Assembly (NCBI GenBank): GCA_965243025.1
Contig: CBDETY010000003.1
Location: 96,001-160,000 of the forward strand
DNA: 64,000 nucleotides
Reading direction: 5' to 3'
DNA from: Candidatus Latescibacterota bacterium
Lineage (GTDB): Bacteria; Latescibacterota; UBA2968; UBA8231
Part shown: piece after piece, positions 10,644 to 44,854 of the stretch
Layout of the letters: each line of letters opens with the position of its first letter
Numbering within the stretch: the stretch's first letter is position 1
Notes under the pieces: generated by a model
Database searches by the model: none
Told to the model about the DNA's origin: nothing
The model's input: the letters and a program-made list of their open reading frames with translations, nothing else
Position numbers and translations under genes: made by a program

Positions 10644-10687
10644 GTTCGGCATCGTCGCAAAACCAAACGCTCCAAAGAAAGGCTCCC

Positions 10688-11698
10688 ATGCGAACAATCG
10701 GCATCGGCTGCTACGGAACGAACGGCCACCAGATACTCGGTCTGGCGCCTGTGTTGAAGGGCGCCTCCATCGAGGCCGTCGCCGGCGTCTCCGAAGCGGA
10801 GTTCGCCAGGATTGCGGAGGAACATCCGAACCTGGCGGGGAGCATGAAGCACCTCCCCGACCTGGAGGCGCTGCTGGCCGACGAGCGGCTCGCCATGATC
10901 AGCCTCTGCAGCCCGCGGCGGGACCGTCAGGCGGAGGAGACGATCCGCGCTCTCGAGGCGGGCAAGCATGTCCTGGCGGAAAAACCGCTCTGCCTGACGC
11001 TGGAGGAACTGCAGCGCATCCGCGGCGCCGAGGAACGGACCGACAGGGAGCTGCGCGCCATGACCGGGTCGATCTACGAGTCCTCCTGGACGGCAATGAA
11101 GGAGGTGGTCGACAGCGGCGAAATCGGAGAGCCGGTGCAGGTCGCGGCGCAGAAATCCTACCCCTACCACGACAGACGCCCCCAGGACCGGGGCGTCGAC
11201 GGCGGCCTGATCCGCCAGGCGGGAATCCACGCCGTCACCTTCATCCGCTGGGCGACCGGCCGTGAGTTCACAACGGTCTCAGCCTTCGATTCCACCAGCG
11301 GCAATCCGCGCGCCGGCCGGCTGCAGATGACGGCCGGACTTGCCTTCACCCTCGACAACGGAGGCACCGGAGCCGCCAACCTCAACTACCTCAATCCGCG
11401 CCAGACCGGCAGCTGGGGCGACGACCGGCTGCGGGTGTACGGCACCGAAGGCATGGTGGAGAACCTGCGGGGGACAGCCCGCCTCCAGGTCGCGACCAAC
11501 CGCAAGGGGACGCGCGAAATCGAAGCGCCGGCGGAAAGCCCCGGCAGGCTGGAGCAGGCCTTCATCGACCTGATCCTGCACGGAACCCCGATGCGCGCCA
11601 GCGCCGGGGACTGCCTGCTGGAGACCGAGGTGGTGTGCGCCGCCCAGCTCTCCGCGGACCGGGGCGGTGAGCCCGTTCGCATCGGGCAGGGGGTTTAG
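10688..11698 (+). CDS. Gfo/Idh/MocA family oxidoreductase
   Basis: ALEAGKHVLAEKPL motif, GEIGEP and GG-LIRQAGIH; ATG at 10688. Confidence 0.9.
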   Translation: MRTIGIGCYGTNGHQILGLAPVLKGASIEAVAGVSEAEFARIAEEHPNLAGSMKHLPDLEALLADERLAMISLCSPRRDRQAEETIRALEAGKHVLAEKPLCLTLEELQRIRGAEERTDRELRAMTGSIYESSWTAMKEVVDSGEIGEPVQVAAQKSYPYHDRRPQDRGVDGGLIRQAGIHAVTFIRWATGREFTTVSAFDSTSGNPRAGRLQMTAGLAFTLDNGGTGAANLNYLNPRQTGSWGDDRLRVYGTEGMVENLRGTARLQVATNRKGTREIEAPAESPGRLEQAFIDLILHGTPMRASAGDCLLETEVVCAAQLSADRGGEPVRIGQGV

Positions 11699-12674: not shown

Positions 12675-12862
12675 TTAATTCTGAGCTATCAGGCCGGCGA
12701 CCTTCTCGGCCAGACGAACGGCCTCCTCGGCCGCATTGAGGTCGGGTTCTACCGGGCTCTCACTCGGATACCGTACTGCCGTTCCATATTCATTCAGAAT
12801 TCAGCCTCCAGATCCTGCTTCGCCTTCTCAAACCAGTCCCGCTCAGGCCGCAGGTCGCTCAT
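12675..12862 (-). pseudogene. HEPN-domain gene remnant (central deletion and frameshift)
   Basis: MSDLRPERDWFEKAKQDLE is joined out of frame to LNEYGTAVRYP..AAEEAVRLAEKV. These are the N- and C-terminal ends of a HEPN domain. The start overlaps the end of the MNT gene. Confidence 0.7.
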
Positions 12863-13187
12863 ACAGCACCTCGCCCTCTTCAAATGCCTTGTGGATCAAC
12901 GAATACGGATCGTTGCGCTGCTGGGCTACAGCTTCTGGAGACCTCACAATCACATCGACGGGCAGCACGAATCGCTCGGCGATTGCCCGCCGAATGGGAT
13001 TGCCCCGCCCCCTTTCCCTCTCATCCCGCATCACGACCAACAGGTCCACATCACTGTGCACTCCAGCCTGTCCGCGGGCGTGGCTGCCGAAGAGGATGAC
13101 CTGATCCGGATCAAAGCGTTCAGCGATCAACCGGGCGATGGCCTGGATGGTGGGTTTGTCGATTCGGACTTCAATGGTCTCCATCAA
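12843..13187 (-). CDS. Minimal nucleotidyltransferase (MNT antitoxin-type)
   Basis: LFGSHARGQAGVHSDVDLLVV motif; GAGGAGG RBS. Confidence 0.9.
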   Translation of the reverse strand: MMETIEVRIDKPTIQAIARLIAERFDPDQVILFGSHARGQAGVHSDVDLLVVMRDERERGRGNPIRRAIAERFVLPVDVIVRSPEAVAQQRNDPYSLIHKAFEEGEVLYERPAA

Positions 13188-13447
13188 TGACCCTCCTCAT
13201 CAAGGACCCCCTCCTGATCGCAAGAGGATCTACATGTACAAAGAGCCTTGCCTGCTCAGTCGGTGGTCTGTCCGAACAAGAATACGAAGGCCGCATGGTT
13301 TTTGCCCCATGACAACTCTGGAAGCAATTCCAGGATTCTGGTCCTGGGCAAACTCGATAACGGCCGCTGCAAGGGCCGCGCGATGGCCTCTTGGGTGCAA
13401 GGCCATCGTGGCTTCATCAAAAACCAACATGTCTGGCGGTTCTGAGG

Positions 13448-14332
13448 TTACCCCGATTTCACGGACAGTTTTCCGTTTGGATTTATACCCCTTGATAAAT
13501 GATACCTCTCGTAGTTGATGGGAGATCGTTGTCCCAGGGCCGAGTGCCGCCGATGGGGGTTGTACCAGCCTTCCAGGTATTCGAAAACCGTACGCTGGGC
13601 TTGCGACTGGGTAGCAAACCGATGACGATCCAGCAGCTCCCTTTCCAAGGTGGCGAAAAAGCTTTCGCACAGAGCATTGTCGAAGCAGTCACCGACCGAT
13701 CCCATCGACGGACGTACCCCGGCCTGGCGACAGCGCTTCCCGAAGGCCAGGGCCGTATACTGACTGCCGTGGTCGGAGTGGTGAATCACTTTCTTGGGAC
13801 GGCGCCGGTGCAGGGCCATGTCAAGGGCGTCCAGCACCAACTGCGTACGCATATGGTTCGCCATGGCCCAGCCCACCACTCGGCGGCTCCAGGCGTCCAT
13901 GACCACGCTCAGATACAAAAACCCCGACCTCGTGGGAATGTAGGTGAGATCGGCAACCCACAGGCGATTCGGGCCGGAGACCGAAAACACCCGCTTGACC
14001 AGGTCGGAGGCGACCCGGCCCTGCCGGCCGCGACGGGTGGTGGAGAGGCGGCGGCGGGCGCATACCCCGCGCACCCCGAGCTCAAGCATCAATCGGGCGA
14101 TGCGCTTGCGACCGATGGCTTGGCCCTCCTCGGCCAGTTCGGCCCGGATCCTCGGCGCTCCATAAGTGCCCCGGGAGTGTTGGTGGATCTGCTCGACACG
14201 TGCCTTGAGCACGGCATCGGCCCGGGCGCGACCCGAAGGCGGGCGTTTCAACCAGGCGTAGTAGCCGCTGGGGGAGACCTTCAGCACGCGGCACATCGTC
14301 AGCACCGGAAAGTCGGCCTGGTGCGCTCTCAT
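13448..14332 (-). CDS. IS3-family transposase OrfB (rve/DDE)
   Basis: WVADLTY, HHSDHGSQY, DNALCESFF and YNPHRRHS motifs. Confidence 0.95.
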   Translation of the reverse strand: MRAHQADFPVLTMCRVLKVSPSGYYAWLKRPPSGRARADAVLKARVEQIHQHSRGTYGAPRIRAELAEEGQAIGRKRIARLMLELGVRGVCARRRLSTTRRGRQGRVASDLVKRVFSVSGPNRLWVADLTYIPTRSGFLYLSVVMDAWSRRVVGWAMANHMRTQLVLDALDMALHRRRPKKVIHHSDHGSQYTALAFGKRCRQAGVRPSMGSVGDCFDNALCESFFATLERELLDRHRFATQSQAQRTVFEYLEGWYNPHRRHSALGQRSPINYERYHLSRGINPNGKLSVKSG

Positions 14333-14643
14333 GAACTCGTAGACGGGCCGGACTCCGAGTCGGCCTCGCGAGCGAACCAGGCCGTGGCTTTTGCCAGGAT
14401 CTCCCGTTCGATACGCAGTTGCTTGTTCTCACGGCGAAGGCGCCGCAATTCCTCCTGCTCCGGACGGGAGGGGCCGTCGCGGCGCACCCCCTCATCGCGT
14501 TCGGCCTGGATCACCCAGTTGCGGATCGTCTGCCCGGACGGCTCGAATTCCTTGGCCAGCGACTCCGGACTACGACCCGCCCGTACCAGTTCCACCATCT
14601 GTTGCCGGAATTCGGGCGGATAAGGGGAATGGGATTTCGGCAT
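14329..14643 (-). CDS. IS3-family transposase OrfA (HTH)
   Basis: YPPEFRQQMVELVRAG..TIRNWV..EELRRLRRENKQLRIEREILAKA; ATGA overlap with orfB. Confidence 0.95.
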   Translation of the reverse strand: MPKSHSPYPPEFRQQMVELVRAGRSPESLAKEFEPSGQTIRNWVIQAERDEGVRRDGPSRPEQEELRRLRRENKQLRIEREILAKATAWFAREADSESGPSTSS

Positions 14644-17634: not shown

Positions 17635-18792
17635 CTAAATCGCCTGCCTGAAGATCCCCTCGACGTCCCGGCGCGCGGTCTTGCGGGGGTTGACCTGGAT
17701 GTTTGCGCTCTGCATGGCGGCTTCTGCGAGGTCCTCGATGCCGCTCTCCTCGACCCCGAGCGTTCCCAGCTTCTCCGGAATTCCCAGGTCCTCGTTGAGC
17801 TGGCGCACCAGCTTCACCGCCTGTCGGGCCGCCTCATGGTCGCCGAGCCCATCGGTATCTCCCCCGAGCGCCCCGGCGACGTCGGCGAACCTGCCGGTCC
17901 GCGAGGGGAGGTTGAACTCCATCACGTACGGCAGCAGCACGGCGTTGGCGAGCCCGTGGTGGACGCCGAACTGGGCCCCGACCGGGTGCGACATGGCGTG
18001 CACGTTGCCGAGCCGGGTCTGCGAAAAGGCGATTCCCGCCATGGCGCTGGCCAGCAGCATGTTCTGGGTCGCTTCGGTCTCGTAGTCGTTGGCGCAGGCG
18101 AGCCGCAGGTTCTCCCCGATCAGGCGCATCGCCTCGAGGGCCATGCCGTCGCTCGCCGGGGAGGCCATCAGGTTGGTGTACGACTCGATGGCGTGGGTCA
18201 GGGCGTCCATCCCGGTGGGACCGCCTACCGCCGCGGGCAGGGCGGTGCACAGGGCGGCGTCGAGGACGCCGGCGCGCGGGGCGATCCGCCAGCTGACGAC
18301 GGGGTCCTTGTTGCGGGATGCCGGGTTGGTCAGCACCGCGAACGGGGTGACTTCGCTGCCGGTGCCGTAAGTGGTGGGCACGCAGACCAGGGGGGGGATG
18401 TCCCTGGTGATCTTCCCAGGGGCCATCAGGTACTCCTCGATGCGGCCCCCGTGGGAGGCGAGGACGCCGATCATCTTGGCGACGTCCATCGGGCTTCCGC
18501 CCCCCACGCCGAGCAGGGCGCCGCACTCCTGTTCGCTGAAGATGCGGGCCCCTTCCTCGACGCAGCTCGCCGGGGGGTTGGGGAGCACCCCGGAGAACAG
18601 GGTGCAGTCGACCTCCGCCTCATCGAGGACCGCGGCGACCTTGTCTATCACCCCGGCCTCGCGCAGCCCCTCGTCGGTGACGAGGAGGATCCGGGTGCCG
18701 GAGGGCAGCAGTTCGGGAAGCCGGGAAAGGGCGCCGGGACCGTGCAGCAGCCGCGTCGGGCTGCGGAACTCGAGGATTTCCTGATAGGCCAT
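17635..18792 (-). CDS. Iron-containing alcohol dehydrogenase
   Basis: GGGSPMDVAK, PTTYGTGSEVT, DALTHAIES and HAMSH..HHGLAN motifs. Confidence 0.93.
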   Translation of the reverse strand: MAYQEILEFRSPTRLLHGPGALSRLPELLPSGTRILLVTDEGLREAGVIDKVAAVLDEAEVDCTLFSGVLPNPPASCVEEGARIFSEQECGALLGVGGGSPMDVAKMIGVLASHGGRIEEYLMAPGKITRDIPPLVCVPTTYGTGSEVTPFAVLTNPASRNKDPVVSWRIAPRAGVLDAALCTALPAAVGGPTGMDALTHAIESYTNLMASPASDGMALEAMRLIGENLRLACANDYETEATQNMLLASAMAGIAFSQTRLGNVHAMSHPVGAQFGVHHGLANAVLLPYVMEFNLPSRTGRFADVAGALGGDTDGLGDHEAARQAVKLVRQLNEDLGIPEKLGTLGVEESGIEDLAEAAMQSANIQVNPRKTARRDVEGIFRQAI

Positions 18793-18845
18793 AAGTCCGT
18801 CTGTCTGATAGGGTTAGAACAGTGGTGGGCCCAATGCGGCTGGCC

Positions 18846-19850
18846 CTATTCCATCTCAAGGGAGGCCTTGATCCGCCCCCAGGAGACCGATTCGACCGCG
18901 GAGCCTTCCGGCTCGGTGTTGGCGGGCAGCAGGATGCCGTCGAGGAAAAAATCCGCTTGAACAAATATTATGTCGAAAATTGTGTCTAATTCCCTACCCT
19001 CGCCGGGATCAGTGGGCTCCATGGCTTCGGGGATCCACCAGGTCGGCGCCCTTTCGTTTTCGTCCCAGTCATTCACCATGATCGCAAAGCCGATCACTTG
19101 TCCCGGTGCCAGATCGCTGAATTCCGTCTCTTCTATCTCATCCCACGCTCCCCCCGAATCGTGCGGAGTGACATACAGCTCGATCACGCTGATGGTCGGC
19201 GCTTCCCCGAATGCGCCCCCGCCCGCATCTCCATACGGGGGAAACATTTTCCAGGAGAATCCCCGAGCCCCGTCAGGGGTATCGATCAGCGGCCCGGTGA
19301 CGGTGCGGGCAATCGCCTCATATCTCTGGGTTCGGCCGTATGCCTGCATTTGCTCCTCCTGGGTCGAAAAAAACGAAAATCCTTCCCCCCCACTGTGGTC
19401 TCCGTCGAATGCCAGAGTGATGCTGTCATGCATTTCGATGGAGCTTCGGCCCCCATCAGGAGCATCGTAGTCGTGATCGTTCCGATACAGATCATCGCTG
19501 GCTGCGAAGGCGACGTAGAGACGGTCCGGGTCGTCGTGCCAGGCCAGCCAGATCCGGAAGTCGAGGTTGGAGGGATCCGGAAGCATGTAGTTCGTGGGTG
19601 TCTTAAAATCCAGCAGGGTCATGGCCGGCTCGCCGATCAGCTCGAACCATTCGTCTAACATTCCGTCGTCGAGCTGGATCTGTTCCAGCATCTCGTCGGT
19701 CAGCTCGGCGATCGGGAAGACTCGACCGCCGCTGTGGGCGCCTGCCTGAGCAGGAAAGCAGGCGGACAGGGCCGACCCGACGAGCAGGCCGAGGGCCATG
19801 CGCCGGTGATTCCTGAGACATCCCGCACCATCTGGTTTCCTTCGGCTCAT
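18846..19850 (-). CDS. Secreted CBM9/DOMON-like protein with a C-terminal SWGRIKA motif (paralog 4)
   Basis: Signal peptide AGA-H; LDFRIWLAWHDDPDRLYVAF; ends ESVSWGRIKASLEME; start codon uncertain. Confidence 0.7.
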   Translation of the reverse strand: MSRRKPDGAGCLRNHRRMALGLLVGSALSACFPAQAGAHSGGRVFPIAELTDEMLEQIQLDDGMLDEWFELIGEPAMTLLDFKTPTNYMLPDPSNLDFRIWLAWHDDPDRLYVAFAASDDLYRNDHDYDAPDGGRSSIEMHDSITLAFDGDHSGGEGFSFFSTQEEQMQAYGRTQRYEAIARTVTGPLIDTPDGARGFSWKMFPPYGDAGGGAFGEAPTISVIELYVTPHDSGGAWDEIEETEFSDLAPGQVIGFAIMVNDWDENERAPTWWIPEAMEPTDPGEGRELDTIFDIIFVQADFFLDGILLPANTEPEGSAVESVSWGRIKASLEME

Positions 19851-19866
19851 GCCCGAGAGGACTGTC

Positions 19867-20751
19867 TTACTCCCGGCTGGAGACGAAACAGAGGCTCTCG
19901 CCGTCAGGCGACCAGGCCGGCTTCCAGTCTCCGTCATGCCCCGACGTCAACCGGGCGATACCGGTTCCATCCGCGGCCATGCGATATATGGAGGTCACCC
20001 CGTCCCGGTTGGAAACGAAGGCGATCTCTTTGCCGTCGCTGGACCACGTCGGCTGCCGGTCCAGGGCAGGGTGATCGGTGAGGTTGACGACCTGGCCGCT
20101 GGCCACCTCGAGGATGCAGATCTCGAAATTGCCGAACCGGTTGCTCTCGAAGACAATCAGGCTGCCGTCCGGGGACCAGGACGAGTGAGCGTCGAACCCC
20201 TCATTCAAAGTCAGGTTCCGCAGGTTCCGGCCGTGGTGGTCGGCGACATACAGCTCGAGATTGCCGTCGCGGTGGGTGGTGAAAGCGAGGTGTTGTCCAT
20301 CAGGCGAGAAGGCCGGCTGGATGGCGTCCGCCAGGATCGGTTCCAAAGCGGAGTCTCCGGCACGGAGCTTCATGACGTAGATGTCGTAGGACTCCGGCTC
20401 CTCTGTTTTTCCGGCGAAGGCGATCCGGGTGCCGTCGGGAAACCAGGAAACCCCTCCCACGCTGGTTATCCGCGGCGGTACCGGCATTCTCAGGAGTACC
20501 TCCCCGGCCCGGGAGGCGAGGTGGAACTCGTTCCCGTTTTCGGTGTGCGCGACGTACAAGAGCCGGCCGTCCGGGCCCCAACTCGGGGTGGACCGGCCCT
20601 CCGTCGGAGACAGGCGCTCGATGGAGGTTCCGTCCCGACCCATGCGAAAAACGCTCTCGACCTGAGTATGTGCGGCTTCTGGATTGGACCACTGCCAGAG
20701 GAGCGAAAAAAAGGACAGGCCAATCGTCAGTTTGCAAGGCATTTCAGTCAT
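19867..20751 (-). CDS. TolB-like PD40 beta-propeller protein
   Basis: Repeated P(S/A)WSPDG..I(A/V)F.S.RDG motifs; signal peptide. Confidence 0.85.
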   Translation of the reverse strand: MTEMPCKLTIGLSFFSLLWQWSNPEAAHTQVESVFRMGRDGTSIERLSPTEGRSTPSWGPDGRLLYVAHTENGNEFHLASRAGEVLLRMPVPPRITSVGGVSWFPDGTRIAFAGKTEEPESYDIYVMKLRAGDSALEPILADAIQPAFSPDGQHLAFTTHRDGNLELYVADHHGRNLRNLTLNEGFDAHSSWSPDGSLIVFESNRFGNFEICILEVASGQVVNLTDHPALDRQPTWSSDGKEIAFVSNRDGVTSIYRMAADGTGIARLTSGHDGDWKPAWSPDGESLCFVSSRE

Positions 20752-20839
20752 AGGTCAGTCCCCTGAAGTGTGATTACGGAAGGGGGGGCGGTCGAGTTTG
20801 GGTAACCCGTCGAAGGCTCGATGGGGGGCATGACTTTGG

Positions 20840-21805
20840 TTACTCCATCTCCAGGGAGGCCTTGATCCGCCCCCAGGAAACCGACTCGACTGCGCTGTCT
20901 TCTCCCGGTTCGGCCGCGCCGGCCGGCAGCAGCAGCCCATCGAGGAAGTGCTCCGCCCGGTAACGGTACAGGATGTCTATTTCCGGGTCCTCACTCTGGA
21001 CTGCTTCAGGCCCCAAGAACCAACTGCCTTTGTCTTCGCTTTCCCCCACGAGGATCGCAAAGCCTATGACCTTTCCTGCCGTCAGATCGCTGACCACGAC
21101 GTCTTCAGGCCGACTGTCGCGTCCCTGCCAACTATCGTATGGAGTGAAGTACAGCTCGATTACCCTGATGGTCGGGTTTTCCCCGGCGACGCCACCGCCT
21201 GCGTCTGCGTAGGGAGGAAAGAACATCCAGGAATCCTCCGTGGTAACTACTGTGTACCCGCCACTCAAGCCGGACGTATGATAGCCATACAACGCAGTGC
21301 GGCCACTGGCAGTACGGGCAATTGCCCCGTATTGTTGCGATTCCCCCCAAAAATCCCACGTTTCGAAGGATTCCAAACGATTCCCACCGCCGCTGTGATC
21401 TCCGTCGATAGCCAGGATAAGATCATGATTATTATCATCCAGAATGTGCACGTCATCGCTGGCCGAGAAGGCCACATAGAGCCGATCCGGCTCATCGTGC
21501 CAGGCCAGCCAAATGCGGAAGTCCAGGTCAGATGGATCAGGTACCTCACCGAAGGCTCTGAAATCGACCAGGGACATGGTGGGTTCGCCGATCAGATCGA
21601 ACCACTCCTCCACCGAGCCGTCGTGAAGCTGGATCCCGGCCAGCATCTCGTCGGTCAACCCGGCGAACGGGAATAGTCGATTGCCTGCGTGGGCTTCTGC
21701 CCGGGCAGACAGGCCTGCCTGGGCAAACAGGCTCGCGGACACCGCCAGCAGCAGGAGCACGCTCAGAGCAGGGGGCACTTGCTTTTTCATGCGGATGCAG
21801 GTCAT
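20840..21805 (-). CDS. Secreted CBM9/DOMON-like protein with a SWGRIKA tail (paralog 3)
   Basis: Same leader (MTCIRMKKQV..), conserved blocks and tail as its neighbours; divergent centre. Confidence 0.75.
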   Translation of the reverse strand: MTCIRMKKQVPPALSVLLLLAVSASLFAQAGLSARAEAHAGNRLFPFAGLTDEMLAGIQLHDGSVEEWFDLIGEPTMSLVDFRAFGEVPDPSDLDFRIWLAWHDEPDRLYVAFSASDDVHILDDNNHDLILAIDGDHSGGGNRLESFETWDFWGESQQYGAIARTASGRTALYGYHTSGLSGGYTVVTTEDSWMFFPPYADAGGGVAGENPTIRVIELYFTPYDSWQGRDSRPEDVVVSDLTAGKVIGFAILVGESEDKGSWFLGPEAVQSEDPEIDILYRYRAEHFLDGLLLPAGAAEPGEDSAVESVSWGRIKASLEME

Positions 21806-21857
21806 CTGTCTTTCTCCCTGTTCGCAGGTCACCATTGATGAGGAGATGGCGGTACGG

Positions 21858-22856
21858 CTACTCCATCTCCAGGGAGGCCTTGATCCGCCCCCAGGAGACC
21901 GACTCGGCCGCGGTGTCTTCCGGTCCGGCGCCGGCCGGCAGCAGGATGCCGTCGAGGAAAAAATCCGCTCGGGCATTACGTATGTCGACTTCCGTACGGA
22001 AACGAGGATCACTGGGCTGCATGGCTTCGGGGGTCCAGGACCACCCGATTGCCTCTTCTTCCTCGTCCCAGTCCTCCACCATGATCGCAAAGCCGATCAC
22101 CTGTCCCGCAGCCAGATCCGTGAACTCCGTCTCTTCGATCCCATCAAATGTCCCCCACCGGTCGTAGGGGGTGACATACAGCTCGATCACGCTGATGACC
22201 GGCGCTTCCCCGAAGACGCCCCCGCCCGCATCCCCGTACGGGGGAAACAGCTTCCAGGAGAACGCCCCCGTCCGACGTCCAACGTAGTTGTCCATGGTCG
22301 GTCCGCTGGCGGTGCGGGCGATGGCATCATATAGCTGCGCTTGCCCACTGGCTTCCATCAACTCCTCCTCTGTCGAAGTTGAGGTAGTTCCGGCGCCGCC
22401 ACCGTGATCCCCGTCGATGGTCAGAGTGATGCTGTCATGGTTCGGGATGTTCCTTCGTATGCCATACCCATCGTGGTCGTGATCGTTCCGGTACACATCA
22501 TCGCTGGCCACGAAGGCTACGTAGAAACGGTCCGGGTCGTCGTGCCAGGCCAGCCAGATGCGGAAGTCGAGGTCGGAGGGATCGGGTGGCAGGTAGTTGC
22601 TATGGGTCTGGAAATCCAGCAGGGTCATGGCCGGCTCGCCGATCAGCTCGATCCACTCGTCTATGCGGCCGTCGTGGAGCTGGATCTGTTCCAGCATTTC
22701 GTCGGTAAGCTCTGGAATGGGGTACACCCGCCCGCCGCTGTGGGCGTCTGCCCGGGCACACAGGCCTGCCTGGGCAAACAGGCTCGCCGTCACCGCCAGC
22801 AGCAGGAGTACGCTCAGCGCAGGGGGCACTTGCTTTTTCATGCGGATGCAGGTCAT
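21858..22856 (-). CDS. Secreted CBM9/DOMON-like protein with a SWGRIKA tail (paralog 2)
   Basis: 332 aa; near-identical to 22912..23910. Confidence 0.75.
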   Translation of the reverse strand: MTCIRMKKQVPPALSVLLLLAVTASLFAQAGLCARADAHSGGRVYPIPELTDEMLEQIQLHDGRIDEWIELIGEPAMTLLDFQTHSNYLPPDPSDLDFRIWLAWHDDPDRFYVAFVASDDVYRNDHDHDGYGIRRNIPNHDSITLTIDGDHGGGAGTTSTSTEEELMEASGQAQLYDAIARTASGPTMDNYVGRRTGAFSWKLFPPYGDAGGGVFGEAPVISVIELYVTPYDRWGTFDGIEETEFTDLAAGQVIGFAIMVEDWDEEEEAIGWSWTPEAMQPSDPRFRTEVDIRNARADFFLDGILLPAGAGPEDTAAESVSWGRIKASLEME

Positions 22857-22911
22857 CTGTCTTTTCTCCCTGTTCGCAGGTCGCGGTTTGGATGAGGAGA
22901 TGGCGGTACGG

Positions 22912-23910
22912 CTACTCCATCTCGAGGGAGGCCTTGATCCGGCCCCAGGAGACCGACTCGACCGCGGTGTCTTCCGGTCCGGCGCCGGCCGGCAGCAGGA
23001 TGCCGTCGAGGAAAAAATCCGCTCGGGCATTACGTATGTCGACTTCCGTACCGAAACGAGGATCACTGGGCTGCATGGCTTCGGGGGTCCAGGACCACCC
23101 GATTGCCTCTTCTTCCTCGTCCCAGTCCTCCACCATGATCGCAAAGCCGATCACCTGTCCCGCAGCCAGGTCGGTTAACTCCGTCTCTTCGATCTCATCC
23201 CACGTCCCCCACCGGTCGTAGGGGGTGACATACAGCTCGATCACGCTGATGACCGGCGCTTCCCCGAAGACGCCCCCGCCCGCATCCCCGTACGGGGGAA
23301 ACAGCTTCCAGGAGAACGCCCCCGTCCGACGTCCAACGTAGTTGTCCATGGTCGGTCCGCTGGCGGTGCGGGCGATGGCATCATATCGCTGCGCTTGCCC
23401 ACGGGCTTCCATCAACTCCTCCTCTGTCGAAGTTGAGGTAGTTCCGGCGCCGCCGCCGTGATCCCCGTCGATGGTCAGAGTGATGCTGTCATGGTTCGGG
23501 ATGTTCCTTCGTATGCCATACCCATCGTGGTCGTGATCGTTCCGGTACACATCATCGCTGGCCACGAAGGCTACGTAGAAACGGTCCGGGTCGTCGTGCC
23601 AGGCCAGCCAGATGCGGAAGTCGAGGTCGGAGGGATCGGGTGGCAGGTAGTTGCTATGGGTCTGGAAATCCAGCAGGGTCATGGCCGGCTCGCCGATCAG
23701 CTCGATCCACTCGTCTATGCGGCCGTCGTGGAGCTGGATCTGTTCCAGCATTTCGTCGGTAAGCTCTGGAATGGGGTACACCCGCCCGCCGCTGTGGGCG
23801 TCTGCCCGGGCACACAGGCCTGCCTGGGCAAACAGGCTCGCGGACACCGCCAGCAGCAGGAGTACGCTCAGCGCAGGGGACACCTGCTTTTTCATGCGGA
23901 TGCAGGTCAT
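22912..23910 (-). CDS. Secreted CBM9/DOMON-like protein with a SWGRIKA tail (paralog 1)
   Basis: 332 aa; AAGGAG RBS; signal peptide ADA-H. Confidence 0.75.
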   Translation of the reverse strand: MTCIRMKKQVSPALSVLLLLAVSASLFAQAGLCARADAHSGGRVYPIPELTDEMLEQIQLHDGRIDEWIELIGEPAMTLLDFQTHSNYLPPDPSDLDFRIWLAWHDDPDRFYVAFVASDDVYRNDHDHDGYGIRRNIPNHDSITLTIDGDHGGGAGTTSTSTEEELMEARGQAQRYDAIARTASGPTMDNYVGRRTGAFSWKLFPPYGDAGGGVFGEAPVISVIELYVTPYDRWGTWDEIEETELTDLAAGQVIGFAIMVEDWDEEEEAIGWSWTPEAMQPSDPRFGTEVDIRNARADFFLDGILLPAGAGPEDTAVESVSWGRIKASLEME

Positions 23911-23960
23911 CTGTCTTTTCTCCTTTTTGTTTCCCTCCAAACGAAATCGGCGTATGCGCG

Positions 23961-23999
23961 GTGCCCCAACGCCCCCAATGGTCAAGGGCGTTGGGGCAC
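23961..23999. other. Strong intercistronic hairpin (14-bp perfect stem)
   Basis: GTGCCCCAACGCCC-N11-GGGCGTTGGGGCAC between the peptide gene and the paralog array; no U-tract on the minus strand. Confidence 0.7.
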
Positions 24000-24034
24000 T
24001 CTTCAGCCGGGCGCAGGGTTCGGGGCCCTGCCGG

Positions 24035-24259
24035 TCAGTCGCTGCAGCTGCAGTCGCCGGTGTCGCAGTTCCAGCTGTAACTGTCGTGGTTCACGAGTGC
24101 GCACTCGTATGCGCACATGTTGGCGGTGCTCGTCGTCTGCTCGTGCGACGACTCATACCAGGACAGGGGCGGGGAGTGCGCGTCCGTCAAGGACGCACCG
24201 CCCAGCAGGAGCCCTGCCCCCAGCAGGACGGCGACGATGTACTTCGCAAGATGCGACAT
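24035..24259 (-). CDS. Small secreted Cys-rich peptide, 74 aa
   Basis: AAAGGAGG RBS; Sec signal ending TDA; CxxxC..C..CxC pattern; sigma54 promoter about 60 bp upstream. Confidence 0.75.
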   Translation of the reverse strand: MSHLAKYIVAVLLGAGLLLGGASLTDAHSPPLSWYESSHEQTTSTANMCAYECALVNHDSYSWNCDTGDCSCSD

Positions 24260-24318
24260 GCTGCCTCCTTTGTGTTCGGGGTTAGCGCCTGTCGCTACCC
24301 CGTTTCATCCAGAAGACA

Positions 24319-24334
24319 TGCAAATGCCGTGCCG
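24319..24334 (-). promoter_or_regulatory. sigma54 (-24/-12) promoter of the peptide/paralog operon
   Basis: Minus strand CGGCACGGCATTTGCA matches YGGCACG-N4-TTGCW. Confidence 0.85.
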
Positions 24335-24467
24335 GTACCGGGCCGGCGGCTCCATCGGTGCTGTCCGTGACGACGTAACCTGTTATTTTCATGGTGGTTA
24401 TTACACCACATTTTTTTATTTTCGGCACAATCAGCTCCCGCGGCGCCGCCATCGGCTTCTCGGTCTC

Positions 24468-24524
24468 GTCGTATTTAATACGATTCGGCCGTATTTAATA
24501 CGACTTGGCCGTATTTAATACGAC
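24468..24524. promoter_or_regulatory. Three tandem palindromes CGTATTTAATACG at 20-bp period; candidate enhancer (UAS) sites
   Basis: Copies at 24470, 24490 and 24510, between the sigma54 promoter and the divergent activator gene. Confidence 0.7.
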
Positions 24525-24635
24525 TTCCCCGATAGCCGCGGCCGACGGCTGGTTGCTCCTGCTTTCGTTCTTCCTTATTGGTACGGTTCTGTGGATAACA
24601 ACCCACCTTGCCCCACAAAGAAAACGGATTCGAAA

Positions 24636-27600
24636 ATGAACGAGGCACGCGAACCCCATTCCCCATCCACCCGGGTCGAGGGTGGGGGGGTGGCTTTCGA
24701 CCATATCCTCGGGCGCCAGTACACGGTCTTCGACGGGCTGGCCGGGATGCACGTGGAAGACATCTACCAAGACCGCCGGGGGCTCCTCTGGATCGCCACC
24801 GCCGACGGCGGGGTCAGCCGCTTCGACGGGGCCCGGTTCGAGACCTTCGGCCCCTCGAACGGGCTTCCCCATCTCAACGCGATGACCATTGCCGAAGACG
24901 AGGGCGGGCGCCTGTTGTTCGGCACTCTCGGGGGCGGGCTGGCCGCTTTCGACGGGCAGGGGTTTCAGGTGTACACCACCGCGGACGGACTGCCCTCCAA
25001 CGACATATTGAGCCTGCACCCCCGGGCGGACGGCTCGGTACAGGTGCTGACCGGGAACGGGATCGCCCGCTTTGTCGAGGGGCGGTGTCTGGAGCCGCTG
25101 ACGGACGTGGCCGGCCAATCCCTCGGAGCGGTGTACGACATGGCTACCGACGCGGCGGGTACGACGTGGCTGGCGTCGCGGGAGCGGGGGATCATCGACC
25201 TGGAAGGTCAGTCCATGAACGGGCATCCGGGCACCGGGGAAACAGCTATGCAATGGCCCTGGAAGTTCGCCCCGGACGCCTCCGGCGGTCTGTGGATCGC
25301 CTTCCGGTACGTGGGCAGCGAAGCCGTTGTCGGCCGTTACGACCCCGAGCGCCGGCAGCTCGACCTGATCGAGGTGGACCACGAGGTCGAGAGCGGCGAA
25401 GTGGTCCAGCACGGCACGCGGCATGTGCGCCAGGACGACAGGGGCTGGCTGTGGATGAGCCGCCGGGGGGTCCTGGTGTACGACGGGCAGGCCTGGCATT
25501 CGTTTTCCGCCCGCTTGCAGGGCACCCATTTCTCGGACACGCGGCTGACCTGCGAGGACCGCGAGGGCAACATCTGGATAGGACTGTGGGGCGGCGGGCT
25601 GCTCTTCTGCGATCCGGTCAGCGTGCAGTTGTACACGGAAGCCGACGGTTTGCCCGACAACGAGGTCCAGTGCCTGGACGAAGACGGGCGGGGTCGGCTG
25701 TGGATCGGGACCATGGGGGGCCTGGCCTGCCGGGAAGAGGACCGCATCCGTACGGTCAATGCCGGGCAAATGGTTTCGGCGCTGGCGGCAGACGGCCCCG
25801 GGCCGGTTTGGAGCGGAAGCCCGGAGGGCAAGGTATTCAAGTGGACGGGAAAAGAATCCCGAGCGATCGAGGTGGCCGAAACCGGCTCCGGGGAAGAGAT
25901 CACGGCCCTGTGCGCGGACGGCCGCGGGCATGTATGGGCCGGCACCTCCCGGGGGCGCCTGGGGCGGGTGGAAGCCGACCGGTTCAACCCGGTGGCTGAG
26001 GAGCTGCCCCATGAGTGCAGCGCCGTGCTGCCGGCCCGGGACGGTGTCTTATGGGTCGGCACCGGGGGGCCCGCCCCGGCGCTTTACCGGTACGAGGATG
26101 GCCGCTTCCAGCCGCCCTCCCTGGCCGGCCTGGAGGCCGTATCCGAAGTGACGGCCTTGTGCGAGCACCAGGGCCACCTCTGGGTGGGCACGGCCAACAG
26201 CGGCCTGTTCGCCCTGGATTTCTCCGCGCAGGAGATTCGCCGGTTTACCGTGGACCGGGGGGACTTGTCGGTAAACGGCATTCTCTGTCTGGTGGCCGAC
26301 CCGGAGCAGGACTGCCTGTGGGTCGGCACGAGCGGCGGCGGGGTGCTGAGGTACGACGGGCATGCGTTCCAGACCATCCGCCTGGGGAACGCCGGCCTGG
26401 AGAACGTGGTCGAGGCCATCCTGATCGACAGCGATGACAGCCTGTGGTTCGGGACCCGGGCGGGTCTCGTCGCGTACCACCCCGGCCAGGTGCCGCCTGC
26501 CCTGGCGATCGGGCGGGTCGAGGCCGGGCGTCTCTTCAAGGCCCCCCGGGCCGTGACCTGCAAGGAAAGCACCCGCGAGGTTCTGATCGAGTTCCAGGGC
26601 ATCAGTTTCAGAACCGGGGCGGAGCAACTGCGTTACAGCCACCGCCTGGCCGGTCATGCCCCGGCGGAAGCCTGGAGCGAATTCACCTCCGCCAATTCTG
26701 TTTCGTTTTCCGGTCTGCCGGCCGGCCGGTTCTGCTTCGAGGTGCGGACCATGGACCGGGACCGCTTGATTTCGGAAGCGGTCAGCCTGGAGGTGCAGGT
26801 GGTTGCGGAGAAGCAAAGCGCGCCCGGTTCGGCCCTGGAGCATATGCCGTGGACCTCTCGGGAGGACATGCTCAGAAACAGTCCGGTCATGTCCCGGGTC
26901 CTGAAACTGGCCGAACAGGTGGCCGGGACCGGGATGACGGTGCTGATTCTGGGGGAGACCGGGGTGGGCAAGGGGGTGCTCGCCGAACACATTCACGCCG
27001 CGAGCTCGCGCCGGGGGCATCCCTTTGTACCGGTCAACTGCGGTGGCCTGCCCCCGGGGTTGGTTGAAAGCGAACTGTTCGGGCACGAAAAGGGCGCCTT
27101 CACCAACGCGGTGGAACGGAAGAAAGGCCGGTTCGAACAGGCGCACGAGGGCACCCTGTTCCTCGATGAAATAGGCGACCTGCCCTTGGAGGCTCAAGGG
27201 GTCCTGCTTCACATCCTGGAGGATCGACACCTATTACGCGTCGGCGGGGAGACGCCCGTCCCGGTGGATTTCAGGGTGGTTGCGGCCACCAACCGGGATT
27301 TGAAAGAGGCCATCACCAAAGGGGATTTCCGGGAAGACCTGTTCCACCGCCTGAACGTGTTCCCGGTGAAAATCCCGCCTCTGCGGGATCGGGGGGAGGA
27401 AATACCGTTCCTCGCCGCCTACTTCGCGAGCCGGTTTGCCGGCGAGTTGGGGCGGCCGGTGCCGTCTCTGAGCTCCGAGGTGTTGAGGCACTTCCAGGAG
27501 TATCCCTGGCCGGGTAACGTGCGCGAGCTGGAGCACGTGATGCAGCGGGCGGTGCTCGTGTGCCGGGATCACGTCGTGCAGCTGGAGGATGGGCTTCCTG

Positions 27601-27851
27601 ATGAAGACCTGTACTGGGATGATGGGTCTGCTTCGTCGCCTGCGTCGGCTCCGCCGGTCGACCCAGGGGAAGGAACCGAAGCCGGCACGGTCTTCAAGTC
27701 CGAAGAGCAACAAATCCTGGAAGCCCTCCAGGCAACCGAAGGGGTCGTATATGGGCCGAAAGGCGCGGCTGTCTTGTTGGGCATGAATCCGGAGCGGTTG
27801 CGTTCCCGCCTGCGGGTGTACGGGTTGGAAAAACCAAAGAAACAGTCTTGA
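24636..27851 (+). CDS. sigma54-dependent activator with N-terminal two-component-regulator propeller repeats and a YYY-like domain
   Basis: DGLP.N.V....ED..G.LWIGT repeats; [29 protein letters not shown] and WPGNVREL motifs; C-terminal HTH. Confidence 0.9.
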
Positions 27852-31784: not shown

Positions 31785-32507
31785 TTACAGAAGAACCCCC
31801 GCGGCCTTCCTGCGGGCCGCCGTCAGGTGAGCGATCACCGTGTCGACGCCGGTGCCGTCGGCGATGCAGGCGAAGACGGTGGGGCCGTCCCCTCTCATCC
31901 TGCGGGCGTCCCGCGCCATCACCCCGAGGTCGGCTCCGACAAGGCGGGCGAGGTCGATCTTGTTGACCACCAGCAGGTCGGACTGGGTGATCCCCGGCCC
32001 TCCCTTGCGCGGTATCTTGTCGCCCCCGGAGACGTCGATCACGTAGATGGCGTAGTCGACGAGCTCCTTGCTGAAGTGCGCGGCGAGGTTGTCGCCGCCG
32101 CTTTCGAGCAGGAGCAGGTCGGGGCGGCAGCGCTCCATGAGGGTCTCGAGGGCGTCGAGGTTGAGGGCGATGTCCTCGCGGATCGCCGCGTGCGGGCAGC
32201 CGCCGGTCTCCACGCCGATGATGCGGTCGCTGTCCAGGGCGTCGTGGCGGACGAGGAAGTCGGCGTCCTCGCGGGTGAAGATGTCGTTGGTCACCACCCC
32301 GAGCTCCCAGTTCGTGCGCAGCCTTTCGCAGAGGGCCTTTACGAGCGCCGTCTTGCCGCTTCCCACCGGTCCGCCGATGCCGGCGGTGAAGGCGCGGCTC
32401 TGCAGGTCCCTGCGGTCTGCCATCCCCTCCCGGGCGGCGTAGGATCCGGGATCGTCGGGATGGCTGTGGCCGTGCCCGTTTTCGTTGTCGTGGCTGTGGG
32501 TGTGCAT
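31785..32507 (-). CDS. ureG: Urease accessory GTPase with a His-rich N-terminus
   Basis: [23 protein letters not shown] and NKID motifs; N-terminus [16 protein letters not shown]. Confidence 0.95.
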
Positions 32508-32620
32508 GTCGGTCTCCGCTGGTGTGCAGTTCAACTGTGGAAACAGGGTGAGTTCAGGCGCCACGGGCGATCGGTGATCTCGCAGCTGTGGATGGGCATG
32601 GCGATCTCGTCGACAGCGGA

Positions 32621-33358
32621 TCAGCTCTGGAACAGCCGCGAGTACAGGTGTCCGTGCGCGGCCTGCGCCAGGTCGAGCTGGGGGGCGCCCCGGCTCGCCT
32701 CCTCGCAGGGAATCAGGCGCGAGTCCCGGGCGGCCCTGGCGCACTCGGGGCGCAGGGAGGCGTGGCGCTCCACCGCCTCGAGGGGGCCGAGGATGCCGAG
32801 GCGTACCGCGGCCCCGAACTGGTCTCGCAGCAGCTGGTGCAGGAAAAGGGTGGCCGCCTCCTCCTCGCCGACCCCGGCGGCGCCGAGACAGGCCCCGAAG
32901 AGTATGCAGCCGTGGGGGGCCGTACCGGGCGTCGAGAAGAGGCGCTCGATGCGGCGCTGGCCCGGGCCGGGGAACAGCCGCGGGAACAGGCGCAGCCAGC
33001 CGCGCCCGGTCTTGAGGCTCGCCTGGCGCGCGCAGGCCGCGGTCTGCATGGCGTCGTAGCGCTGCGCCAGCTCCACGAGTCCGGCCCCCGGGGGCTGCGC
33101 GAGCCTCCAGGCTTCCCGCAGGAAGGGGAGATCGCAGGTGCCGGCGGTGCGCAGGGCCTGGCGCGCGAACTGGTGCAGACTGTCCCCGTCGGCGACCAGC
33201 CCCAGCTGCCGCGCCGCTTCCAGGCCCGCGGAAAAGGCGTAGCCCCCGGTCGGCAGGGCCGCGTCTCCGAGCTGCAACAGCAGCAGCAGGGGGTCCCCGC
33301 TATTGGCGGCGCCGGGGACCGTTCCGGGTTCCGTCTCGATGGCGGGGTACTGTGTCAT
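32621..33358 (-). CDS. ureF: Urease accessory protein F
   Basis: [21 protein letters not shown]; ends HLYSRLFQS. Confidence 0.92.
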
Positions 33359-33384
33359 GGGGTCTCGCTGAACTTCCGGCTGAC

Positions 33385-35097
<1,713 letters not shown>

Positions 35098-35113
35098 GCG
35101 GTCGTTCTCCGTT

Positions 35114-35881
35114 TCAGGTGGCGGGCCGGTCGCAGAGGAAGCCGCGCTCCCGCGCCCGGGACAGGGCCGGGCCCCGCCGCTCGTCGCTGGCCTCGCCGCC
35201 GGTCAGGCCGTTGCCTCCGAACACCCGGCGGCGCCCGTCGATGGCGACGAGGTCGACGGTCTTCACCTCTCCCGGCTCGAAGCGGACCGCGGTGCCGCTG
35301 GGGATGTCGAGGCGGAAGCCGAAGGCGCGCCCGCGGTCGAAGCTCAACTGCGGGTTGGTCTCGAAGAACGGGTAGTGGGACCCGACCTGGACCGGCCGGT
35401 CACCGAGGTTGGCGACCTCGAGCCGGACCGTCTCCCTGCCGCTGTTGATCTCGATCTCTCCTGGGGCCGGGACCACCTCTCCCGGAGCCGCCCCGGTGGA
35501 GTTGTCCGGCGACCAGGGGGCGGATGCCGTGCGTTCGAGGCCGGACCCGTGAAGGGCGAGCAGAGGGTCGCCGCGCCCGCTGCAGATCGGGTCGTGCACC
35601 GTCACCAGCTTGGTGCCGTCCGGGAACGTCCCCTCGACCTGCACCTCGCCGACCATCTCCGGCACCCCTGGCAGGACGTCGGCGGTGCCGAGCAGCCGCT
35701 TGCCCCGGTCCATGAGGTCGGCGACGCTGCCGCCGTCGCGGATGAACTCGAGCAGCTGCGAGGCGATCAGGGCCACCGCCTCCGGGTAGTTGAGCCGCAG
35801 CCCCCGGGCGTAGCGCTTCTGGCTGACGAAGCCGGCCCCGTGCAGGACGAGCTTGTCGATCTCCCTCGGTGACAGTCGCAT
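35114..35881 (-). CDS. ureAB: Fused urease gamma/beta subunit
   Basis: [26 protein letters not shown], then [21 protein letters not shown] in one frame. Confidence 0.95.
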
Positions 35882-35886
35882 GCGCT

Positions 35887-36785
<899 letters not shown>

Positions 36786-36789
<4 letters not shown>

Positions 36790-37763: not shown

Positions 37764-37771
37764 GGCGCGGC

Positions 37772-40809: not shown

Positions 40810-40870
40810 CTCGACATCCTCCTTGGTTGGTGATTGGCGGCGCCGGCTCGGGTGTCCGGTGCCGTGCTCC

Positions 40871-41875: not shown

Positions 41876-41941
41876 GAAATCCTCCTTGAGAATGAATCCG
41901 CGGCGCGGAAAAGGCGTGTTGATGGGAAACGCGGGACAGTT

Positions 41942-41957
41942 TGCAAATCAGGGGCCA
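41942..41957 (-). promoter_or_regulatory. sigma54 promoter of the guanidine/urease operon
   Basis: Minus strand TGGCCCCTGATTTGCA (GG-N10-GC). Confidence 0.8.
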
Positions 41958-44803: not shown

Positions 44804-44854
44804 GTTCGGTATCCCGCCGTGCGTGCCGGCGGTCGGGCGACTTGTCCCGGGGGG

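Follow-up and report, generated by a model that had tools for sequence, protein, structure and literature searches.

The stretch of DNA analysed here (hereafter 'the window') comprises 64,000 nt of contig CBDETY010000003.1 from a Candidatus Latescibacterota bacterium (assembly GCA_965243025.1, contig positions 96,001 to 160,000), and the subject of this report is a group of genes and regulatory features at window positions 18,846 to 27,851 (Table 1). A plus-strand gene for a sigma-54 activator and a gene for a small Cys-rich peptide diverge from a 330 bp intergenic region, and the minus-strand elements follow one another, from 24334 to 18846, in the order 74-aa peptide, RNA hairpin, three paralogous genes, PD40 propeller gene and fourth paralog. 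The explanation that we consider best overall, with a probability of about 0.45, is that the locus is a 9.1-kb strain-variable island carrying a putative inducible operon, whose products would be exported, and the sigma-54 switch that would control it.

Table 1. Features of the locus, with positions in the window.
Feature	Position	Strand	Basis
Sigma-54 enhancer-binding activator, 1086 aa	24591-27851 (GTG start); alternative ATG 24636	+	Pfam
Candidate upstream activating sequence: palindrome CGTATTTAATACG in each of three 20-bp direct repeats	24470-24529	.	Motif scan
AT-rich spacer with A-tract, between palindromes and promoter	24375-24432	.	GC profile
Predicted sigma-54 -24/-12 promoter CGGCACGgcatTTGCA	24319-24334	-	Consensus scan
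Predicted exported Cys-rich peptide, 74 aa, predicted signal peptide	24035-24259	-	Open reading frame (ORF); AAGGAGG 7 nt before ATG
Strong RNA hairpin directly after peptide stop codon	23961-23999	-	Inverted repeat, RNAfold
Paralog 1, 332 aa; Sec-type signal peptide; predicted mature start HSGGR; tail ...SVSWGRIKASLEME	22912-23910	-	ORF
Paralog 2, 332 aa; recent tandem duplicate of paralog 1	21858-22856	-	ORF
Paralog 3, 321 aa; most divergent copy	20840-21805	-	ORF
PD40 beta-propeller protein, 294 aa	19867-20751	-	Pfam PD40, E = 6.9e-43, five stretches
Paralog 4, 334 aa (MSRRKPDG start) or 317 aa (ATG 19799)	18846-19850	-	ORF

The original prediction placed three palindromes, an AT-rich spacer and a near-consensus -24/-12 promoter between the divergent genes, and all are present, almost to the base. 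Exact copies of the palindrome CGTATTTAATACG occur at 24470-24482, 24490-24502 and 24510-24522, that is, with a start-to-start distance of 20 bp; they precede the -24 element by about 135-190 bp and the activator start by 62-107 bp. The sequence is unique to these three sites in the window when up to 2 mismatches are allowed; the chance expectation is 0.12, and 0 of 100 shuffled sequences reached the observed count. The spacer has a GC content of 27.5% (24380-24419) as compared with 0.59-0.76 in 1-kb intervals across the window, and the consensus for integration host factor, WATCAANNNNTTR, has no match in it with up to 1 mismatch.

The box CGGCACGGCATTTGCA, at 24334-24319 on the minus strand, has 1 mismatch to TGGCACG-N4-TTGCW and has the GG-N10-GC promoter pattern within a TGGCAC/TTGCA context and lies in the intergenic region ahead of the peptide gene; the predicted transcription start, near 24308, would lie ~49 nt ahead of the peptide ATG. 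Sites with ≤1 mismatch to the -24/-12 consensus number 2 in 64 kb, with 0.24 expected and with 2 or more in 4 of 100 shuffles. At ≤2 mismatches the pattern is at chance level (9 found vs. 7.5 expected), and a lone -24/-12 match is, for this reason, weak evidence. The other site with ≤1 mismatch, TGGCACCGCGTTTGCA at 47575-47560 on the minus strand, lies ~60 nt ahead of an amtB-P-II operon and adjoins a second activator gene, for a GAF sigma-54 activator. An ammonium-transporter/P-II operon is a classic sigma-54 target, and the amtB box serves as an internal positive control, indicating that the organism uses this -24/-12 consensus. Because this second box sits before amtB-P-II and beside the GAF activator gene, the call of the island promoter is well supported in silico. 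The nitrogen-regulation cluster to which the control belongs spans 43136-49340 and includes genes for glutamine synthetase (43136-44620), P-II (45708-46046), the ammonium transporter (46076-47482) and the GAF sigma-54 activator (47781-49340).

The divergent gene, originally read as encoding a propeller-sensor activator, does encode Reg_prop, sigma-54 AAA+ and helix-turn-helix (HTH) regions, the last as a weak match. In Pfam, the protein matches Sigma54_activat (PF00158; E = 3e-65, residues 762-926), AAA_lid_14 (E = 7e-21) and, in its N-terminal part, Reg_prop in seven stretches (E = 3.6e-38); matches to Y_Y_Y (19 bits, below the cut-off of 26.6) and to HTH_8 over the C-terminal 50 residues (E = 0.0015; 18.7 bits vs. 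a cut-off of 22) are weak, and many relatives of the activator carry PF02954. The consensus for the loop that contacts sigma-54 is GAFTGA; the loop reads GAFTNA in the translation, one residue off, and the AAA+ Sigma54_activat domain with a loop of this type identifies the protein as an enhancer-binding protein. No membrane helix is apparent (maximum Kyte-Doolittle value of 1.28 over 19-residue segments), and Pfam reports no receiver, GAF, PAS or V4R domain; with no receiver domain and no membrane-spanning hydrophobic segment, the protein is best read as a cytoplasmic sensor and activator in one component. None of the NCBIfam equivalog cut-offs is reached, the best score being that for NorR (312.6 vs. 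476 bits). At least 4478 relatives matched among 8000 candidates scored, the few named ones being labelled as proteins of Gemmatimonadota or Gemmatimonadetes metagenome-assembled genomes (MAGs). Eight relatives are 77-98% identical and the remainder plateau near 57-64%, often with two per large contig, a distribution from which we take most of them to be paralogues with other targets.

In the regulatory scheme that we propose, the soluble activator would sense a cytoplasmic cue through its Reg_prop/Y_Y_Y propeller region, and its HTH would bind the three palindromes, assembling on one DNA face given their 20-bp spacing; across the AT-rich, possibly bent spacer, it would then contact sigma-54 holoenzyme at the -24/-12 box. 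These steps follow established knowledge of enhancer-binding proteins and would fit every sequence feature. The sigma-54 logic (activator, upstream palindromes, a spacer that might bend, -24/-12 box) holds in silico, and we consider it probable, with good though not full confidence, that this architecture acts as a sigma-54 switch. The regulatory part is textbook sigma-54 logic; the parts belong to large or new unstudied families.

The strong hairpin predicted after the peptide gene is likewise present: its arms (23961-23974 and 23986-23999) pair perfectly over 14 nt, RNAfold gives a stem of 18 pairs, and the 116-nt stretch that contains it has a folding energy of -52.9 kcal/mol (z = -3.08), a stability reached by 1 of 200 shuffles. 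The stem is followed by no U-run, the hairpin is absent from the terminator-like sites found by scan, and no Rfam family was found in 18400-24800 at E ≤ 0.1. As a candidate attenuator or stabiliser of the 3' end, the hairpin would increase the proportion of expression that goes to the peptide; it suits differential expression, yet could terminate transcription. Paralog 1 starts ~50 nt beyond it. The gaps between operon genes are small, and a GGAG-type ribosome-binding site lies ahead of every paralog. A promoter scan found no sigma-70-like promoter ahead of any operon gene on the operon strand, the single minus-strand sigma-70-like match being inside paralog 3 and the count being at chance level, and no terminator-like site was found inside the operon on the operon strand. 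On these sequence features, we lean slightly towards the island genes forming a single transcription unit. Beyond paralog 4, 53 bp (18793-18845) separate it from a gene for an Fe-alcohol dehydrogenase on the same strand, with no terminator-like site.

That the locus is strain-variable is indicated by comparison with related genomes. A scan of species-representative genomes identified six loci of the paralog family (L001-L006), five in a MAG titled Latescibacterota and one on a contig titled Aminicenantes. One of the loci in the Latescibacterota MAG, L002, is syntenic with the window: the flank on one side (porphobilinogen deaminase, uroporphyrinogen methylase/synthase and an AIR-synthase-like gene) and the flank on the other (Fe-alcohol dehydrogenase, a LarA-like gene and Zn-alcohol dehydrogenase) are shared, with flank proteins 83-97% identical. 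DNA similarity between the two (87-94% identity) stops at window position 27957 and resumes at 18823, and between these breaks lie 9.1 kb in the window vs. 1.14 kb in L002. The original prediction of a self-contained system agrees with this synteny, its span coinciding nearly exactly with a 9.1-kb insertion or expansion between conserved flanks. The L002 site holds one paralog-family member, of ~68% DNA identity and with an in-frame TAG. From the conserved flanks and from the 9.1 kb vs. 1.14 kb between them, we conclude that the window organism is fairly close to the Latescibacterota MAG and that the module is a variable island. In the L002 member itself (10001-10840), the TAG falls at a conserved DDVY-x-N position and reflects either a pseudogene or an assembly error; between the dehydrogenase gene and the LarA-like gene, L002 also has a 2.4-kb insertion with an HTH_17/DNA-methylase gene (12818-14380).

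Base composition also distinguishes the island genes from their flanks. The GC content at third codon positions (GC3) is 0.77-0.82 in the paralog, PD40 and activator genes and 0.89 in the peptide gene, with 0.92-0.95 in the flanking dehydrogenase genes and 0.88-0.90 in the flanking haem-synthesis genes; at L001-L006, family ORFs have GC3 values of 0.57-0.77 vs. 0.85-0.97 in their neighbours. Gene transfer, amino-acid composition and fast turnover are candidate causes of the lower values in the family. No terminal direct or inverted repeats were found at the island ends, and tblastn of paralog 1 against plasmid and phage collections gave no match. At three of the other loci in the Latescibacterota MAG (L004, 10795-12300; L005, 7637-9895; L006, 10001-12162), family members adjoin IS66 and DDE transposases and form tandem pairs or triplets, several of them broken by frame changes.

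The first product of the operon would be the 74-aa secreted Cys-rich peptide of the original prediction, which is present with a signal peptide predicted from its sequence. Cleavage is predicted after ...TDA and before HSPP, giving a mature form of 47 aa that is acidic (7 D/E, 0 K/R; net charge of about -7) and contains 3 His and 5 Cys. A first search for relatives returned 7 clusters, and a profile search of 1.84 billion representatives returned 15 matches at E ≤ 1e-3, or ~14 small relatives once P0254 is dropped; the match to P0254, a 1785-aa VWD/C8/TIL protein, looks spurious, being a low-complexity match of profile positions 14-42 in nine stretches. Seven residues are invariant in all 16 aligned sequences (H28, H39, C49, C53, H58, C70 and C72), H28 being the residue directly after the predicted cleavage site, ...DA/H. 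Most members also carry GxC just ahead of CxC, and the more distant relatives are richer in His.

The structural model of the peptide (mean predicted local distance difference test score, pLDDT, of 71; 82-90 in blocks of the mature core) is a beta-alpha-beta-beta arrangement, with C49xxxC53 in a helix at 46-55 and C70xC72 in the last strand at 69-73. CxxxC in a helix combined with CxC in the last strand is the signature of the cysteine-stabilised alpha/beta motif. We conclude that the peptide, as modelled, carries the signature of a cysteine-stabilised alpha/beta mini-fold, with predicted disulfide pairing. Foldseek with this model gave 0 matches at E ≤ 1e-3. Its best local superpositions were PAN/apple fragments (2yio; 39 columns, root-mean-square deviation of 1.1), and scorpion toxins and plant and insect defensins appeared lower in the non-significant list. 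The family profile reached three PDB sequences only, all defensin-like (brazzein) and all non-significant (E = 2.7-3.9), the ESM Atlas returned scores of 0.80 or below only, and a literature search for 'defensin' with 'Latescibacter' returned unrelated papers only. The shape of the peptide hints at a defensin-like protein, and its charge does not fit that group.

The four paralogs were described in the original prediction as diversified secreted proteins with SWGRIKA; all are present, with signal peptides clear in the sequence. Paralogs 2, 3 and 4 are 97, 63 and 70% identical to paralog 1, and all four end in ESVSWGRIKASLEME. Paralogs 1 and 2 form a tandem repeat with a period of 1054 bp and a synonymous divergence (dS) of 0.035, and in a family tree of 119 of the 120 best matches (270-360 aa) they are a very recent duplicate; paralog 4 groups with the close relatives P0016, P0014 and P0011, and the long branch of paralog 3 has none of the included best-hit sequences close to it. 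The sequence left out of the tree, P0058 (539 aa), had been considered as a fused form and is a gene call spanning two tandem copies. An apparent repeat element behind each paralog was likewise discarded, being the conserved 3' coding end in another reading frame. Pairwise ratios of nonsynonymous to synonymous substitution rates (dN/dS) between paralogs are 0.30-0.38, and variability is concentrated in blocks 81-90, 131-140, 161-170, 191-200 and 261-295. The paralogs match no Pfam or NCBIfam family; a word-seeded search gave at least 556 clusters of relatives, and the best 120 are without a name or Pfam domain.

Two features at the ends of the mature paralogs are conserved across the family. 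At the N-terminus, the motif H-x-G-x-x-[VLAF]-[YF]-P follows the hydrophobic segment in 111 of the 120 best matches, with Ala at -1 in 106 and at -3 in 94 of these 111; the nine others comprise six that keep AH, two truncated at the N-terminus and a fused gene call. By the AxA cleavage rule, applied here as a rule of thumb only, mature paralogs should begin with His. Among 24 sequences that include a subfamily of 33-35% identity, no His is invariant apart from this residue, H39, and H151, which belongs to the motif DGDHSGG. At the C-terminus, the last ~17 residues, AVESVSWGRIKASLEME, are modelled as disordered and are as conserved as the core (entropy of 0.42 vs. 0.38-0.39 in the two best core blocks). 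A SWGRIKA-type tail is present in the last 20 residues of 112 of the 120 best matches, and a six-frame scan of the window and the six fetched loci found 12 occurrences of the tail motif, all in paralog-family members; in the literature, the string WGRIK was found only in an unrelated virus context. The mature paralogs are, in addition, strongly acidic (52-60 D/E vs. 15-19 K/R).

The AlphaFold2 model of the paralog (pLDDT of 74; predicted template modelling score, pTM, of 0.76) gave 8 Foldseek matches at E ≤ 1e-3, the best being 1i82_A (E = 1.7e-9; template modelling (TM) score of 0.75 on the target) followed by 7nwn and 7nwo; the next match after these CBM9 structures was a putative carbohydrate-binding protein of Bacteroides. 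Weaker fold matches were the haem-b subunits of ethylbenzene dehydrogenase, 2ivf_C (E = 2.7e-4), and of nitrite oxidoreductase, 7b04 (E = 7.6e-5), with TM scores of 0.34-0.50. In the nearest ESM Atlas clusters, from Latescibacterota, Gemmatimonadota and Poribacteria, CBM9_1 is found in 13-94% of members, a sequence-profile search of the PDB with the paralog family gave nothing relevant, and literature on CBM9 with Gemmatimonadetes or Poribacteria gave nothing on the paralog family. We conclude that the modelled fold is CBM9/DOMON-like and that membership of the CBM9 family fails at the sequence level. The original term 'binding proteins' is supported as regards the fold.

The gene between paralogs 3 and 4, originally described as encoding a TolB-like protein, retains the propeller part of that description: only PD40 and other propeller models match. 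The TolB part does not survive, as Pfam reports neither a TolB N-terminal domain nor a peptidase domain and the score against the TolB model TIGR02800 is 169.8 bits vs. a cut-off of 343.15. The N-terminus of the PD40 protein is only moderately hydrophobic, and export is probable on sequence grounds. The protein also has Ala-His after its N-terminal hydrophobic stretch (...NPEAA/HTQ), with a -3 residue that fits the cleavage rule poorly; all six exported island products may start with His.

As to what the island does, we infer a function from these parts and favour an inducible exported ligand-binding set. A single transcript would begin with the peptide gene, and the hairpin would make the peptide its most abundant product; read-through would express the four acidic CBM9/DOMON-fold proteins and the PD40 propeller. 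The peptide and the four CBM9-fold proteins would be exported by their signal peptides, with export of the PD40 protein only probable. Because a CBM9-like fold points to ligand binding outside the cytoplasm, the paralogs could, as a tentative proposal, be diversified ligand binders there. The ligand would be a glycan or another polyvalent envelope or extracellular ligand, for which the variable loops would give specificity; the invariant N-terminal His and His151 would form a common cofactor site, and the invariant C-terminal tail would give a common docking or sorting contact. Within the same proposal, and equally tentatively, the peptide might serve as a partner expressed alongside them or carry a cofactor, and would not be a cationic antimicrobial of the classical kind. 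A co-fold of mature paralog 1 (residues 39-332) with the mature peptide (residues 28-74) gave a score of 0.00 and a mark of 0.32, with the partner's own fold uncertain, and is uninformative on binding.

The invariant N-terminal His in both paralogs and peptide hints at a metal site, and according to one alternative explanation the island serves metal handling, probably of copper, or oxidative chemistry: a site resembling a histidine brace would be formed by His1 and His151 on a scaffold of CBM9 shape, the peptide, which would offer a His1 of its own, two more invariant His and two disulfides, would be a periplasmic metal carrier or redox partner, and the switch would answer metal or oxidative stress. 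An invariant His at +1 is a hallmark of copper sites of the LPMO (lytic polysaccharide monooxygenase), CopC, YcnI and PmoB type, and AA10 LPMOs were first classed as a carbohydrate-binding module family. Both of these precedents favour the explanation, as do the family's nearly universal AH at the predicted cleavage site, kept in the subfamily of 33-35% identity, the restriction of invariant His in the paralogs to two residues, the three His and four Cys that are the peptide's invariants (with His-richer distant relatives) and the strongly acidic character of all products. Set against this, the fold is CBM9-like, unlike any known histidine-brace family, no copper-homeostasis gene was seen in the window, literature on DOMON with 'histidine brace' or 'N-terminal histidine' gave only LPMO work unrelated to this fold, and the cleavage site rests on a rule of thumb. 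On sequence evidence we regard the explanation as unlikely. A fuller version is less probable still and is put forward as speculation: the paralogs would be a new histidine-brace family on a carbohydrate-binding scaffold, LPMO-like or acting in a copper relay, with the peptide as metal carrier or electron partner, the tail docking to an envelope receptor, a cytoplasmic propeller-sensor switch, and the island swapped between strains.

The modelled positions of CxxxC and CxC in the peptide, with GxC ahead in most members, bear instead on a role in competition or defence, in which the peptide would be a cis-defensin-like toxin or antimicrobial with the cysteine-stabilised alpha/beta fold, made in excess, and the CBM9-fold proteins and propeller would deliver it, bind its target or protect the producer. 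Consistent with this, the sole three PDB sequences reached by the profile are defensin-like (brazzein; E = 2.7-3.9), scorpion toxins and plant and insect defensins figure in the non-significant Foldseek list, the peptide gene comes first after the promoter and ahead of the hairpin, as for a product made in excess, and bacterial cis-defensins with signal peptides exist (PMC11561630). We nevertheless rate this role as improbable: Foldseek gave 0 matches at E ≤ 1e-3, with PAN/apple fragments as best superpositions; the peptide family has four invariant Cys vs. three disulfides in all 74 bacterial defensins described in that source; and the mature peptide, with a net charge of about -7, has no Lys or Arg. 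PADLOC families are unmatched by the peptide, paralogs 1, 3 and 4 (the paralogs scanned) and the PD40 protein; for the activator, PADLOC gave generic AAA+ activator models of the RtcR/PspF type only, and the island contains no transporter, immunity-type membrane protein or protease. Comparably improbable, in our view, is that the locus is not one system, with the switch controlling the peptide only, the hairpin terminating transcription, and the paralog array and PD40 gene being a fast-evolving locus for surface proteins that shares the hot spot by chance and is expressed separately. The strong hairpin directly 3' of the peptide gene would fit such a division, as would the solitary occurrence of the paralog family in the related genome, at the syntenic site and four other loci, its tandem arrays and its position next to transposases elsewhere, and its size, ~40 times that of the peptide family. 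Against it, the hairpin lacks a U-tract and was not scored as a terminator, the ~50 nt between hairpin and paralog 1 hold no sigma-70-like site, and 4 of 4 peptide clusters with long-enough contigs match the contig size of a paralog cluster, one at only 3862 nt.

The reading that we prefer, a strain-variable island with a switch-controlled exported set, has to be weighed against several results. The regulation, the products and the ligand are all deduced in silico. The paralog dN/dS values give no overall sign of positive selection. CBM9_1 (PF06452) is unmatched in the four window copies at E thresholds of 0.01 or 1 and matches only 3 of 40 paralog relatives, with a best E of 0.05; the modelled fold, moreover, is shared by 2ivf_C and 7b04, in which it binds haem b, and therefore gives no indication of the ligand. 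As regards transcription, the hairpin might act as a complete terminator, the promoter scan covered sigma-70-type sites only, and the 3' end of the unit is open, with possible read-through, judging from the sequence, into the Fe-alcohol dehydrogenase, LarA-like and Zn-alcohol dehydrogenase genes. As regards recurrence, no tblastn match to the activator, peptide or PD40 protein lay within 10 kb of any of the six paralog loci, and these loci contain no sigma-54 box (≤2 mismatches) and no peptide-like ORF. Linkage could also be assessed by a proxy, equal length of the relatives' longest contigs, with only the best 120 of the 556 paralog clusters compared, and an equal contig size is no proof of a shared contig.

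By this proxy, 4 of the 7 peptide clusters have a longest contig of the same size as that of a paralog cluster (348266, 159311, 7053161 and 3862 nt), the other three having contigs of 781-1592 nt, too short for a neighbour. The same holds for 3 of the 8 closest activator relatives (348266, 14534 and 12455 nt) and for one 64%-identical activator relative (176297 nt). At the size of 348266 nt, relatives of all three are found, with 98% (activator), 95% (peptide) and 89% (paralog) identity. At the six paralog loci, the neighbours are unrelated enzymes, transposases and a methylase, and since these loci are without activator, peptide, PD40 gene and box, the paralog family works without this switch and peptide. 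The families also differ in size (at least 4478 for the activator vs. at least 556 for the paralogs vs. ~14 small relatives for the peptide). We read these results to mean that the module is conserved within a narrow clade and that the paralog family is widespread, usually alone. The co-occurrence originally expected of propeller-Sigma54_activat proteins with the peptide and SWGRIKA proteins is thus not general, being seen, by the size proxy, in close relatives only; the original interpretation at the level of a whole system is supported in part.

Elsewhere in the window, a region at 31785-43023 carries genes for a CobW/UreG-type GTPase (31785-32744), urease alpha (33385-35097), an arginase-family protein (39640-40809) and UreD (42127-43023), together with ABC-transporter and NMT1-like binding-protein genes. 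At 13448-14643 lies an IS3-type transposase pair (HTH_Tnp_1 and rve), adjoined by a nucleotidyltransferase gene (12843-13187), where GC is comparatively low (0.58 at 13001-14000). Three ORFs of high GC3 (1146-4037, 8646-10643 and 52697-56224; 963, 665 and 1175 aa) match no Pfam family at E ≤ 1e-5.

The locus brings together three families of interest beyond this genome: an activator class with a cytoplasmic propeller sensor, with at least 4478 relatives, none characterised, and with no paper in a full-text search pairing 'regulator propeller' with 'sigma-54'; a CBM9-fold family of at least 556 clusters, unrecognised by Pfam and NCBIfam, with an invariant His at the predicted mature N-terminus and a tail conserved like the core; and a small peptide family, acidic and with a modelled cysteine-stabilised alpha/beta fold, from a lineage for which our literature search found no report of defensin-like peptides. 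With one promoter, one activator, defined candidate binding sites and a natural 'empty-site' relative, it is a compact and testable entry point. If the N-terminal His is a true metal site, or the tail a sorting signal, this would apply to hundreds of proteins of Latescibacterota, Gemmatimonadota and Poribacteria.

The products can be compared with known systems one by one. PMC11561630 describes 74 bacterial cis-defensins, all with three disulfides, from Proteobacteria, Acidobacteria and Actinobacteria only. The island peptide shares with these their small size, signal peptide, N-terminal tail, helix CxxxC, strand CxC and GxC; it differs in having 4 invariant Cys rather than six in three disulfides and in belonging to a lineage outside the three phyla listed. 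Unlike cationic defensins it is acidic, with three invariant His, and it has no significant structural or sequence match to solved defensins. The PD40 protein shares the PD40 beta-propeller repeats with TolB; unlike TolB, it has 294 aa, is without the TolB N-terminal domain and lies away from tol or pal genes. The paralogs share a beta-sandwich fold with CBM9 (1i82, 7nwn) and with the DOMON-like superfamily (EbdC, 2ivf_C; NxrC, 7b04); unlike CBM9, they are separate, predicted secreted proteins and not modules attached to a glycoside hydrolase, with ~100 extra residues, an invariant N-terminal His and a C-terminal SWGRIKA tail.

The switch is closest to regulons of the NtrC/NifA/PspF class, with which it shares an AAA+ domain with a GAFTGA-type loop (GAFTNA here), a putative C-terminal Fis-type HTH, palindromes ~135-190 bp from a GG-N10-GC promoter and an AT-rich stretch between them; it differs from these in its input, a ~700-aa Reg_prop/Y_Y_Y propeller region without a membrane anchor, and in its target genes, which belong to unstudied families. 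Bacteroides hybrid two-component systems use periplasmic Reg_prop/Y_Y_Y sensors, with kinase, receiver and AraC modules. The island activator shares with these sensors the arrangement of Reg_prop (seven stretches) and a weak Y_Y_Y ahead of an output module; unlike them, it is predicted to be cytoplasmic and is fused straight to a sigma-54 AAA+ domain. We agree with the original prediction that the architecture as a whole is not that of a described system: it is built from known kinds of parts.

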